A DNA stretch of 64,000 nt from Candidatus Babeliales bacterium (GTDB lineage Bacteria > Babelota > Babeliae > Babelales > JANWKD01), in NCBI GenBank assembly GCA_963701665.1, contig OY969622.1:32001-96000 (forward strand), written 5' to 3'. Below the pieces are notes generated by a model, which saw only the letters and a list, made by a program, of their open reading frames with translations, was not told the DNA's origin and did not search any database. Shown here piece by piece: positions 10,985 through 15,346 of this stretch. Positions within the stretch are counted from its first letter, which is position 1; every line of letters starts with the position of its first letter. The translations under genes and the position numbers were made by a program.

Positions 10985-11004
10985 GTAATTTCAGTACTAT
11001 TATT

Positions 11005-11038
11005 AAAAAAAAGGCGGATGAAAATCCGCCTTTTTTTT
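11005..11038. terminator. Bidirectional Rho-independent terminator
   Basis: A-tract, GGCGGAT/ATCCGCC stem, T-tract, between convergent genes. Confidence 0.85.
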
Positions 11039-12425
11039 AATAATATCTCTCTAATTCCCAATCAGTGACTGCAGTATTAAATGCATACAGTTCGTCTCTT
11101 TTTGATTTTACAATCGAAGCAAATAAATCTTTACCGAGCATTTTTTGCATTAAATTGCTTTGCTCGAAAGCTTCTAATGCTTCACTAAAACTAGCTGGTA
11201 ACATTTCAATATTGAGTGAGCTGCGCGTTCCCTCGTTCATCTTATATACATTTTGATCAACGAGTGTTGGCAATTCATACTTATTTTTGATGCCCTCGAG
11301 TCCTGCGCAAACGAGTGCTGCAAATGCAAGATAGGGATTACACATTGCATCAGGCGAGCGCATCTCAATGCGGCATGCACTCGGTTGTGTTGCCCCTGCG
11401 TGTGGAATGCGAATCATAGCGCTTCTATTTTTTTTACCACAGCAAATAAAAATAGGTGCTTCAAAGCCTTTCACTAAGCGTTTATAGGAATTGATTGTTG
11501 GATTTAAAAGAAGCGTGATTTCACGCGCGTGTTTTAAAATGCCCGCGATGAAATGGCACGCGACATCACTGAGTTGTTCGGGATTTTGCTCGTTAACAAA
11601 AGCATTTTTTTGATTTTGGATATCAAACAAACTAAGATTCAGATGCATACCACTGCCAGCCTCGCCGTGCATTGGTTTTGGCATGAAGCTAACTTCTTTG
11701 CCGTATAATTGTGCAACAACAGCAATTGCTTGCTTAGCCGTGCCTAAACAATCGGCAATATTAAGGGCATTATCATAATGCATACTCATTTCAAATTGTC
11801 CGGGCCCAACTTCATGATGGATTTTTTCAATATTAAGATTCATGCTATTGAGTATTTGTAATGCACTGACTATTGCCTGCGATATTGCAAAATTATCGCA
11901 GCGTTGCGCATAACTCAGCCAATCAATCGGCATTAAGGTTTGATCTTTGGTGGTATCAAAAACATAAAACTCAAGTTCTGGGCCGACATAAAAATCATAA
12001 CCCATGCTGTACGCCTCTTCTAACTGTTTTTTCAAAACCATGCGCGGATCGGATTGATAGGGCGTTTCATTATCAAGATACATGTCACAAATAATACGCA
12101 CCATGGCCCCCGTTTGATCATTGTGCCATGCTAATTTTTCCATGGGCGCATAAAGATCTGGTTTAAGTTGAATATCGCTATTAGTTATATCAGTACAACC
12201 CGGGATTGATGAACCATCGAGGTAGATGCCATGTTGAAGATCGTGTCTGAGATATTTTGCCGGACGAATGACTGATTTGAAATTGCCATCGCGATCGGTG
12301 CAACAAAATTCGATGAACTGTATACTGCTGCTTTCGCAATCGTCACATAGTTGCTCGATTTTATACGCTTGTAGTGAAAACAATGAAAGAAAAAAAACGC
12401 TGAATACGATGTGTCGTGAAATCAT
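11037..12425 (-). CDS. glnA: Glutamine synthetase type I family protein with N-terminal signal peptide
   Basis: DGSSI, GPELEF, HHEVGPGQFE, FMPKP..GSGMH, NSYKRL..GFEAP, NRSAMIRIP and RIEMRSPD motifs. ATG at 12425 has an AAGGAG RBS 7 nt upstream. Confidence 0.85.
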   Translation of the reverse strand: MISRHIVFSVFFLSLFSLQAYKIEQLCDDCESSSIQFIEFCCTDRDGNFKSVIRPAKYLRHDLQHGIYLDGSSIPGCTDITNSDIQLKPDLYAPMEKLAWHNDQTGAMVRIICDMYLDNETPYQSDPRMVLKKQLEEAYSMGYDFYVGPELEFYVFDTTKDQTLMPIDWLSYAQRCDNFAISQAIVSALQILNSMNLNIEKIHHEVGPGQFEMSMHYDNALNIADCLGTAKQAIAVVAQLYGKEVSFMPKPMHGEAGSGMHLNLSLFDIQNQKNAFVNEQNPEQLSDVACHFIAGILKHAREITLLLNPTINSYKRLVKGFEAPIFICCGKKNRSAMIRIPHAGATQPSACRIEMRSPDAMCNPYLAFAALVCAGLEGIKNKYELPTLVDQNVYKMNEGTRSSLNIEMLPASFSEALEAFEQSNLMQKMLGKDLFASIVKSKRDELYAFNTAVTDWELERYY

Positions 12426-12504
12426 GAACAATCTCCTTTATGTAATAGTTTTTTGAGTACCGTACTTTTTTAAGAGCAATTTGTAAAGCAGCAGTTTGCT
12501 TTTG

Positions 12505-13221
12505 TTACTTCTTGCCCATCATAAATGCGGCTATTTTTGGAAATTGTGCAGAATTTTTTTGTACATCTTTTGATGAACCTGATTCAACTATAGTTCCATG
12601 TTCCATCAGGTAAATAGTGCACTCGAGTGCTTGAACGAGTGCAACATCATGCGAGGCTATGATAATTATTAATCCTTGACGCGCGAGTTCTTGAAACGTG
12701 TGCGCAATATGATTTGTAAGTAATGGATCGAGTGCCGAAGTTGGTTCATCTGCGCAGAGAATTTTTGGTTTTAATGCTAACGCGCGTGCAATGGCAAGCC
12801 GTTGTTTTTGACCGCCAGAAAGTTGATTTGGATATGCGTGTGCAAGATTAGCAAGATCGTAATGCTCGAGAAGTTCATGTGCAATTTTTTTTGCGTCACG
12901 TTTTGTTTTGCCCATGACGTGAATAAGTGCGAGCGTAATATTTTGTTCAACGGTAAGATGTTCAAATATATTGAACTGTTGAAAAATCATGCCAATCGTG
13001 TGCTGTTGATTTACCGCGTTTAAGTCGAGTGTTTTGTTATTGAACGAAATCTCGCCTGAATCTGGTTTTTCAAGGTTATTTAATATGCGCAATAAGGTAG
13101 ATTTACCTACGCCAGAATGTCCTAACAGCACGGCAATAGTGCCCGGTGCAACATCGAGGTTAATATGTTTTAAAATGGTTTTTTCGTGAAATTTTTTTGA
13201 AAGATTTTTAATGATTAACAT
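12505..13221 (-). CDS. Polar amino acid ABC transporter ATP-binding protein (GlnQ/ArtM-like)
   Basis: GHSGVGKST, LSGGQKQR and DEPTSALDP motifs. Confidence 0.92.
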   Translation of the reverse strand: MLIIKNLSKKFHEKTILKHINLDVAPGTIAVLLGHSGVGKSTLLRILNNLEKPDSGEISFNNKTLDLNAVNQQHTIGMIFQQFNIFEHLTVEQNITLALIHVMGKTKRDAKKIAHELLEHYDLANLAHAYPNQLSGGQKQRLAIARALALKPKILCADEPTSALDPLLTNHIAHTFQELARQGLIIIIASHDVALVQALECTIYLMEHGTIVESGSSKDVQKNSAQFPKIAAFMMGKK

Positions 13222-13867
13222 GACGATTAATCCTTGCTTGCACATAATGGGCAAGTAGTGAAACGAGGCTTGTTAAAATTAAATAGATGAGTGCAATAGC
13301 GCAGTAAACGGGAATTGCATTATAGGTTCGGCTGATGATTATGGAGCCTTCTTTGAACAATTCAACAACGCCAATCGTTGAGGCTAAACTAGAATCTTTA
13401 ATCAGCGTGATCATTTCATTCAGAAGCGCAGGAATGATCACAGTGATCGCTTGAGGGAACACGATAAAACGCATAGTCTGCCATTGGGTGAGTCCTAACA
13501 CTTTTGCTGCTTCTCGTTGTCCTTTGCCGACTGATAAAATGCCCGATTTTACCGTCTGGCTGATGTATGCAGCACTATTTAAGCCGATGGCAATAATTGC
13601 GGTCGTGATTAATGAAAATTCAATGCCGATTGATGGTAACAAATAATAAAAAAATGGAATTTGAATGAGCATTGGCGTGCCGCGGAACAAGGTGACGTAG
13701 GAAGTAACAAACCACCGTAATGCTAATGGTGCATATACTTGAATAAATGCCAACACGGTGCCCAACACAAATCCTATCAAACTCGAAGCGAGTGCAATCT
13801 GCAACGTAACGAGCGTTCCGCGCAGTAAGAACGGTAAAATTTGCATAAAAAATGAACTGGTGATCAT
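13208..13867 (-). CDS. Polar amino acid ABC transporter permease
   Basis: FRGTP, GQREAAKVLG (EAA loop) and LIKDSSL motifs; ATGA-coupled to the upstream binding protein. Confidence 0.92.
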   Translation of the reverse strand: MITSSFFMQILPFLLRGTLVTLQIALASSLIGFVLGTVLAFIQVYAPLALRWFVTSYVTLFRGTPMLIQIPFFYYLLPSIGIEFSLITTAIIAIGLNSAAYISQTVKSGILSVGKGQREAAKVLGLTQWQTMRFIVFPQAITVIIPALLNEMITLIKDSSLASTIGVVELFKEGSIIISRTYNAIPVYCAIALIYLILTSLVSLLAHYVQARINRHVNH

Positions 13868-14634
13868 GAAAGATGCCACTTTCTTTTGAGTGTTTCAAGT
13901 GAGCCATCTTCAGACATTTCTTGTAGGATTGTGTTGATACGGTCAACAAGTTCAGGATATTTTTTTGAAATGGCAAAAGCTGCTGGCTCACTCGTATTAG
14001 GAATTGGCGTGGTTATAAAATTTTCAGAACCGTATTGATCAAAAAACGGTTTTACCGTTGTTACTGCTGTGACAAATGCATCAGCACGTCCGGAATTTAA
14101 AGCAAGGAATGCATCGGCCACGGTTGGTAACCGTTTGAGTGCAATATTTGGATACTGTGATGAAAGATATGCTTCAGCTGAAAATCCATCATTAACAATG
14201 ACATCTTGATTAGCAAGATCAGCGAGCGTTTTTAAAGGCGCGTGCATTGCACGGGTAACAATAACGAGTGGCTCTCCTGCGGTATAATTTTTAGAAAAAA
14301 GTACTTGTTGCGCGCGCTCTTGCGTTGGCGTGAGCCCTGCGGCAATCATATGCAGCGAACCAAAATTGAGTTGCGTAATGAGGGTAGAGAATGGCATATC
14401 TTTAATGACGAGTTTCTTGCCCATTCTTTTTGCAAGCTCATTAACAAGATCAATATCAAAACCAACGAGCGTATCATGTTCAATGTATTCAAATGGTGGG
14501 AATTCTGCGCTGGTGCCAATTATTAAAGAGGAATCATCATGAAGTCGATGTCGTTTCTTGTTGTAAAAAAATAATACTGTTGATGCAAGTACAATAATGC
14601 TTAGAAGGGTGAATGGTAGCGTATATTTGCTCAT
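13864..14634 (-). CDS. Polar amino acid ABC transporter substrate-binding protein (family 3)
   Basis: GTSAEFPPFE, GFDIDL and T.ER motifs; N-terminal membrane anchor. Confidence 0.92.
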   Translation of the reverse strand: MSKYTLPFTLLSIIVLASTVLFFYNKKRHRLHDDSSLIIGTSAEFPPFEYIEHDTLVGFDIDLVNELAKRMGKKLVIKDMPFSTLITQLNFGSLHMIAAGLTPTQERAQQVLFSKNYTAGEPLVIVTRAMHAPLKTLADLANQDVIVNDGFSAEAYLSSQYPNIALKRLPTVADAFLALNSGRADAFVTAVTTVKPFFDQYGSENFITTPIPNTSEPAAFAISKKYPELVDRINTILQEMSEDGSLETLKRKWHLS

Positions 14635-15101
14635 GCTAATCCTTCTTTTTTAATCTTATAATGCAATGCTTTGCAAATGGTAACATAGATTGATGCGATG
14701 TTTTTGACACTTGTGGGCGCAATAAACAGAACATTTTCTCCTGCTAGGGTACCAATAACACCAGATAATTTTTGTTGATCGAGATAATCACCAACAAAAC
14801 TCGCAAGACCCGGCACTGTGTTAACAATAATTAATACTTCATTATGAACTATTGTGTGAATTGAGCGTACTAACAGTTCAAGGGTGCTATTTTGGTTTTC
14901 GAGATCGTAGACAGAAATATCATCGACTACTTTTTTTGACACATGTAATTCTCGCAAATCACGAGAAATAATTGATTGATTGGTATCAATGTTATATTTT
15001 TGCTTAAGCAACGATGCCAAAGTCGTTTGATCTTCAACAGGATAGAGGCCGATGAGCTCTTTTAAGGCTTCTTGCCGCAACTTTTTCTTATTTTTCCTCA
15101 T
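14631..15101 (-). CDS. argR: Arginine repressor
   Basis: Winged-HTH NQSIISRDLREL; C-terminal T.PGLA and IGTLAGENVL. Confidence 0.9.
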   Translation of the reverse strand: MRKNKKKLRQEALKELIGLYPVEDQTTLASLLKQKYNIDTNQSIISRDLRELHVSKKVVDDISVYDLENQNSTLELLVRSIHTIVHNEVLIIVNTVPGLASFVGDYLDQQKLSGVIGTLAGENVLFIAPTSVKNIASIYVTICKALHYKIKKEGLA

Positions 15102-15300: not shown

Positions 15301-15346
15301 TATCACTATATATTCATATTATACTGAATATTTATTAATAAATCAA
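15301..15346 (-). promoter_or_regulatory. Sigma70 promoter of the argR operon overlapped by ARG box(es)
   Basis: Minus strand: TTGATT (15346-15341), 17 bp, TATAAT (15323-15318). ARG-box-like ACTGAATATTTATTAATA at 15323-15340; weaker box at 15301-15318. Confidence 0.7.

Follow-up and report, generated by a model that had tools for sequence, protein, structure and literature searches.

Glutamine synthetase (GS) is known from textbooks as a cytoplasmic enzyme that uses ATP. In the window analyzed here, a stretch of 64,000 nucleotides from the genome of a Candidatus Babeliales bacterium (Dependentiae, a phylum whose members parasitize protists), the gene for this enzyme begins with what looks like a signal peptide. 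Does this bacterium export its GS and, if so, where would the enzyme work, and on whose ATP?

The enzyme and its active site

The GS gene is located on the minus strand and runs from an ATG at 12425 to a stop codon at 11037 (462 aa); a plus-strand reading of 11037..12425 was rejected, as it contains stops throughout. Named homologues belong to Candidatus Babeliales, and the genome (G000) has a size of 1.34 Mb and encodes many leader-bearing and ankyrin proteins. Its completeness of 93.6% bounds all gene absences that we state for it.

The predicted mature protein (residues 21-462, encoded together with the stop codon by 11037..12365, minus strand) was assigned to GS type I-alpha on the basis of Pfam, PDB matches, an AlphaFold model and a table of active-site residues. 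Firstly, Pfam detected the beta-grasp domain Gln-synt_N (residues 35-116) and the catalytic domain Gln-synt_C (125-461), which, together with a chain of about 440 aa and nearest relatives among the GS of Bacillota and archaea, is the make-up of type I-alpha. Secondly, the AlphaFold model (pLDDT 94.8) matched solved type I-alpha enzymes in Foldseek with TM scores of 0.86-0.89 (0.89 for those of M. mazei and B. subtilis). Among all models, NCBIfam TIGR00653 scored best, with 417.9 bits just short of its cut-off of 429.15, and the gamma-glutamylputrescine synthetase model (GGputSyn, NF045547) gave 260.5 bits against a cut-off of 650, which places the protein outside that family. A second GS gene was looked for and not found in the genome (93.6% complete).

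Inspection of the active site, using B. subtilis residue numbering read off the 444-aa B. halotolerans GS of locus L103 and residue roles that we mostly presume, showed no variation at 20 positions in the metal, ATP, glutamate and ammonium sites, either across the 40 GS taken from genomes or, bar one substitution, across 106 database matches, a set that partly overlaps the 40. The metal and catalytic residues E132, E134, E189, E196, H245, E333, R298, R316, R321, R331 and R335 are kept, as are, in 40/40, those of the ammonium site and flap (D53, S56, Y156 and E304); Glu189 is also invariant. The possibility of a pseudo-enzyme was rejected because of this invariance of the catalytic residues. 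Two other positions differ. Asn240, which belongs to the glutamate amino site, is replaced by Ala256 here; the residue is Asn in 35 of the 40 relatives and in 61 of 78 controls (the GSI-alpha loci among the matches listed by the contig profile search, with no Dependentiae among them), and Pro, Ala or Ser in the remaining five Dependentiae GS, so Asn is no strict hallmark of type I-alpha. Arg62 corresponds to Asp79 here, and the Arg is kept in only 5/40 Dependentiae GS versus 68/78 controls. Thus, the original prediction that all checked GS motifs are intact holds for the 20 positions, and it does not extend to Asn240 and Arg62. Two studies tie Arg62 to glutamine feedback (PMC10799026, PMC9249791), and one of them found no inhibition by glutamine in an enzyme without this residue (PMC10799026). 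Based on the 20 invariant positions and the frequent loss of Arg62, we predict that the Dependentiae GS are active and that most of them escape glutamine feedback.

The solved GSI-alpha enzymes (M. shengliensis 8oow, M. thermolithotrophicus 8ool, M. mazei 8tfk and B. subtilis 4lni) have the same fold and mature length, share 38-40% identity with the Babeliales GS, and have in common with it all tested metal, ATP, glutamate and ammonium-site positions except Asn240. Arg62 is likewise replaced in the glutamine-insensitive enzyme of M. thermolithotrophicus (PMC10799026). The Babeliales GS differs from the solved enzymes in having an export-type leader, and in having an ArgR-like regulator upstream and no glnR beside it. 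The mature protein is also rich in cysteine (3.2%, versus 1.8% in the clade and 0.9% in the controls), to which we give no weight as an argument from disulfides because exported and cytoplasmic proteins of this genome barely differ in this respect (1.4 versus 1.3%). Taken by its sequence, the protein is a GSI-alpha in every test but two soft ones (Asn240 and TIGR00653), and what would be new about this enzyme of a familiar type is its predicted location.

The leader and its history

Residues 1-20 (12366..12425, minus strand) form a predicted Sec/SPase I signal peptide with a predicted cut after L-Q-A. The call was made by a hydropathy and charge rule of our own, which among 300 scanned proteins also picked about 11 that are cytoplasmic or mis-started. 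The n-region has a net charge of +1, the uncharged run is 13 residues long, hydropathy is 2.73 over 10 residues and 1.42 over 19, and the next 18 residues have a charge of -3. By this rule, the leader fits Sec/SPase I cargo: a positive n-region, an h-region of 10-15 residues and a small residue at -1. It contains neither a lipobox Cys nor a twin-Arg; Tat export was rejected, as TatC was also not found in the genome (93.6% complete). The Leu at -3 of the predicted cut is unusual for model bacteria and frequent in this genome, where L-x-A is the most frequent pattern before the Met-Glu/Asp/Gln junction of leaders (22/115). Cleavage after Ala20 would leave 18 residues before the first strand, inside the span of 17-21 that holds for the majority of cytoplasmic GSI-alpha controls, whose full range is 12-56. 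In the AlphaFold model, helix 1 runs on through the leader (H2-32), which gives no support for cleavage.

The original prediction had described a strong ribosome binding site and a signal-peptide-like leader, and had named a true start further downstream as the alternative. The site, AAGGAG, is present at 12433..12438 (minus strand), 7 nt 5' of the ATG. The sole in-frame NTG between this ATG and the fold is a TTG at codon 15, and it lacks a ribosome site. In the Dependentiae GS, a ribosome site score of at least 3.5 was found before the leader start in 34/38 and before the downstream start in 0/38, a check that is partly circular in that leader starts were picked by their best score. A leaderless isoform made from a downstream start was rejected on this ground, and the case for translation beginning at the leader ATG is strong as judged from these sites.

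The leader rule was positive for 37 of 38 Dependentiae GS orthologues, the window's protein included, and for none of the 78 GSI-alpha of other phyla, so both the leader and the conservation expected of it were borne out, and a one-off or assembly artefact was rejected. It is the character of the leader that is conserved: identity among Dependentiae GS is 0.24 in the leader versus 0.44 in the core, and median values are 2.57 for hydropathy, 14 for the uncharged run and +2 for the n-region charge. For 16 proteins of this genome that are secreted or belong to the envelope, the values were 2.83, 14 and +2, a comparison of character only, and partly circular, as they were taken from the rule's own positives. 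Among the best 120 database matches, 100 have a hydrophobic leader by eye, 13 are leaderless and seven are short or unclear; all 13 leaderless proteins fall outside the Dependentiae group in a FastTree tree. For seven in-clade database proteins the leader was scored as missing or unclear; P0092 (the GS of L027), the one compared with its DNA, turned out to have a mis-called start.

A GS search of 261 genomes of the phylum gave 49 matches, of which 45 belong to the clade (E < 1e-70), two are divergent and two are weak; clade GS was not found in 216 of the 261. We read 39 of the 44 clade loci beyond this genome, and one divergent GS. The leader is intact in 37 of the 39; it is cut by a contig end in L042 and lies behind a frameshift in L020. 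In L020, leader and ribosome site are seen just upstream in another frame, a frameshift that may stem from an assembly error or from inactivation. The divergent GS-family protein (L053:6878-8290, plus strand, genome G147) is leaderless and probably a separate acquisition. Trees were made with FastTree (161 rows) and IQ-TREE (57 of these rows) and were midpoint-rooted. In the FastTree tree, L053 joined the Dependentiae side by a very long branch, for which reason it was omitted from IQ-TREE. GS with and without leader lie on the two sides of one branch (SH-aLRT 99, leader columns excluded). This split along one branch, together with the grouping of several families, agrees with a single early gain and repeated losses; the ancestor of the sampled Dependentiae likely acquired the leader in one event, and most lineages likely lost the gene later.

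The transporter and its regulator

On the same strand, GS is preceded in order by genes for an ArgR-family repressor (14631..15101), an SBP_bac_3 binding protein (13864..14634), a polar amino acid ABC permease of the HEQRo family (13208..13879) and a GlnQ/ArtP-like polar amino acid ABC ATPase (12505..13224), all on the minus strand and assigned by profile matches, alignments or, for the binding protein, Pfam and alignment. The gap between ATPase and GS is 79 nt. A terminator-like hairpin at 10998..11045 (-27 kcal/mol, z -9.0), predicted to act in both directions, is common to GS and the convergent ankyrin gene; it was missing from the list of the pattern scan and was found by its folding energy. 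As originally proposed, therefore, GS appears to be the last gene of this unit. A tandem ARG-box-like operator with 22 bp between the boxes, supported by shuffles, is located at 15303..15338 (minus strand), and it is overlapped by the best sigma-70-like promoter (TTGATT-17-TATAAT, 15318..15346, minus strand, 10/12), a class of sites whose frequency is not above chance.

How tightly is GS coupled to the transporter? Of the 261 genomes, 137 contain an orthologue of the binding protein (E < 1e-40), 45 contain GS and 29 contain both (Fisher p 0.10, for genomes that are related and not independent). Obligate coupling is unsupported, since 108 of the 137 lack GS and 16 of the 45 lack the binding protein, several of the 16 being incomplete. 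At 40 loci, some of which end at a contig edge, the full set of binding protein, permease and ATPase was found upstream of GS in nine (three of them with inserted genes); in four there was only the binding protein or a remnant, and in three argR. In a genome of the same genus, the ABC ATPase and GS are separated by three genes that bear leaders and are encoded on the other strand (L014:3874-6890). The wider neighborhood of GS is conserved, with atpD and a HerA-like ATPase upstream and a convergent M23 peptidase, which suggests an ancestral locus. The link between GS and transporter is old but loose: orthologues keep the leader (37/38), but the full transporter set is present at only 9/40 loci. 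This weakens the proposal that the co-transcribed transporter takes up the product of GS, as the two are no obligate partners.

ArgR was found in 37/261 genomes, with 34 strong matches. Gly-Asp-Asp is the conserved turn by which ArgR binds L-arginine (PMC7248756); at all 30 Dependentiae loci read, including the one analyzed here, it is replaced by Gly-Glu-Asn, so these proteins lack the arginine-sensing signature. Tandem ARG boxes, 20-22 bp and mostly 22 bp apart, precede 20 of 30 argR genes versus a mean of 0.01 in 200 shuffles. In the binding protein, the Arg that we take to contact the alpha-carboxylate (Arg107 here) is kept in 78/81 relatives, and the Asp presumed to contact the alpha-amino group is present in 0/81; the position is Ala190 here, and each of the five solved arginine or glutamine binders compared has Asp or Glu there. 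A search for literature on the contacts of TmArgBP gave no match. Asn148 is near-invariant (76/81). The N-terminal anchor of the binding protein is followed by a basic cluster, which is unusual for an outward-facing domain. The altered pockets of both proteins suggest that the ligand is probably not arginine, and glutamine is a possible one; the Dependentiae ArgR is likely, on this reading of its pocket, to be a repressor with a new co-repressor.

The ArgR-glnPQ genes of Chlamydia pneumoniae, likewise an intracellular energy parasite, are reported to form an arginine uptake module (PMC2175317). As in the genes described here, ArgR and ARG boxes go together there with an ABC transporter for polar amino acids. 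In contrast, the present genes have the Gly-Glu-Asn ArgR, boxes 22 bp apart, no alpha-amino Asp and a GS that may follow, and a plain arginine regulon as in Chlamydia was rejected on account of the differing pockets.

Where an exported enzyme might work

The genome encodes four genes of the TLC family (ATP/ADP translocases). ATP/ADP translocases were reported in all seven genomes of one study, together with a degenerated Gram-negative envelope, and the words glutamine and signal peptide are absent from its main text (PMC4776705). On its way to translocases of the inner membrane, host ATP has to traverse the periplasm, and delivery of GS to the host would therefore not be required. The original prediction had reasoned that periplasms lack ATP, a premise that seems weak here, and that GS may be exported to a host compartment; leader and intact enzyme agree with the export, but the host destination becomes unnecessary.

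For export, the genome encodes SecA, two signal peptidase I genes and two secretins; a type III export gate was not found in it (93.6% complete). A tandem signal peptidase I pair (G000:C1:911724-913352, L180) might serve different leader classes. The secretins (G000:C1:9233-9706 and 14488-14955, L132) are very large; their open reading frames span about 975 and 1052 aa. Users of glutamine encoded in the genome are GatA, GatB, two GluRS-like proteins, a GlmS-like protein and AsnB. An ammonium transporter, the SDF (dicarboxylate/amino acid) symporter family and a class I glutamine amidotransferase were not found in the genome (93.6% complete); CTP and GMP synthases are apparently missing, given the lack of the last. 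Since 216/261 genomes lack clade GS and many of these have the transporter, glutamine can usually be obtained without GS.

That this leader-bearing GS is exported in some way is very probable from its genes. We give about an even chance to the more specific proposal that it is exported via Sec, cut by SPase I, and works in the periplasm on host-derived ATP. Translation would start at the leader ATG, and Sec export would be followed by cleavage after Ala20. The ring would then assemble outside the inner membrane, as suggested by the kept N-terminal helix and C-terminal tail, and produce glutamine from host-derived ATP, glutamate and ammonia, with no feedback owing to the replaced Arg62, for which there is the archaeal precedent. 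In the last and weakest step, glutamine would be taken up for GatCAB, GlmS and AsnB; the adjacent transporter could serve this step, and is not necessary for it.

A less likely course, though one to be taken seriously, is that GS leaves the cell after Sec, as a monomer through the type II secretin or in outer membrane vesicles, and serves as a metabolic effector that raises the glutamine or removes the ammonia of the host, in its cytosol or in the vacuole. The same class of leader is found on eukaryote-directed domains of this genome (DOT1 methyltransferase, UCH, Macro, MavL-like, WD40 and ankyrin), secretins are present with no type III export gate found, and lost feedback suits an unregulated enzyme. 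However, an assembled GS dodecamer (about 600 kDa) would probably not fit through a secretin, protist hosts have a GS of their own, and the old linkage to an inner-membrane uptake system suits a periplasmic role. A study of a cultured member of the Dependentiae, from whose text the word glutamine is absent, reports signal peptides for 44% of CDS and for 78% of the ankyrin proteins, along with apparent outer membrane vesicles, which also favors an effector (PMC6561590).

It is improbable that GS is an ordinary cytoplasmic enzyme whose leader stays uncleaved as a membrane tether or is poorly used. This would agree with its being the only GS of the genome and with ATP being surest in the cytoplasm, but an uncharged run of about 14 residues and a 19-residue hydropathy of 1.42 are low for a transmembrane helix, the positive charge is N-terminal with at most +1 in the next 18 residues in 31/38 (the export orientation), and downstream starts lack ribosome sites. 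Quite improbable, too, is an exported gamma-glutamyl-amide ligase for another amine, whose product or substrate the altered ArgR and binding protein would sense and import: the Ala at Asn240 (Pro, Ala or Ser in 5/40) and the altered pockets (Gly-Glu-Asn in 30/30, Asp in 0/81) would suit it, but Asp53, Ser56, Tyr156, Glu189 and Glu304 of the ammonium site and flap are invariant, GGputSyn scores 260 (cut-off 650) versus 418 for GlnA, and the top Foldseek matches are true GS, with the methylamine ligase in 50th place. GS-like ligases (the PuuA family, NF045547, and GmaS, 9qur) share the fold and a variable Asn240 position with the Babeliales GS, but they score far lower, and the Babeliales GS keeps the ammonium-site residues of a true GS.

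GS is no isolated case of a leader in this genome, which weakens the original reading. By the strict rule, 435 of the 1165 ORFs of this genome (37%) have a leader. A Pfam scan of 300 of the 316 cluster representatives of leader-bearing proteins yielded no ribosomal protein, tRNA synthetase or polymerase among these 300, which, with about 11 false calls, indicates that leaders are not spread over such housekeeping proteins. Leader-bearing cofactor enzymes include a GDP-mannose 4,6-dehydratase (above the family cut-off), a sulfotransferase, and FkbM and DOT1 methyltransferases; glycosyltransferases, a flavodoxin-like oxidoreductase and a viperin-like radical SAM protein also have leaders. The last (L166:6915-7940, minus strand; NF038283, below cut-off) starts with a signal-peptide-like leader, and a thioredoxin reductase-thioredoxin fusion (L168:3795-5252, plus strand) has an N-terminal hydrophobic anchor or leader. 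The dehydratase is present twice, as a leader-bearing copy (L191:11621-12748, minus strand) in a run of leader-bearing genes with a sulfotransferase and a STELLO-type glycosyltransferase, and as a leaderless copy (G000:C1:123329-124438); by eye, 14 of the best 30 phylum loci for this enzyme have a leader. This is the best independent sign that Sec cargo of the phylum reaches a site with cytosolic metabolites. We tentatively propose, at somewhat less than even chances, that Dependentiae put Sec leaders on cofactor enzymes that would work either inside the host or in a leaky periplasm, drawing on host ATP, SAM, PAPS and nucleotide sugars, and that the feedback-free GS, the ArgR rewired away from arginine and the binding protein with its new pocket would be the nitrogen arm of this strategy.

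Mycobacterium tuberculosis GlnA1 is an extracellular type I-beta GS that is leaderless and released without a signal peptide. The likeness is that of a GS of an intracellular bacterium outside the cytoplasm, here predicted from genes alone; the difference is that the export tag of the Dependentiae is genetically encoded and clade-wide. We found no published description of a leader-bearing Dependentiae GS in literature that comprised few subscription papers and the main texts of PMC4776705 and PMC6561590, whose supplements may list the gene; PMC11495043 and PMC9938205 add nothing on it.

If true, an energy parasite would fuel biosynthesis with host ATP that it has not imported, and the leaders on other Dependentiae enzymes would be a general strategy, not noise. 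The finding bears on the contents of the periplasm in an intracellular ATP thief, and on the route by which Sec-tagged proteins may reach the host, and both questions can be approached through one well-understood enzyme with a simple assay.
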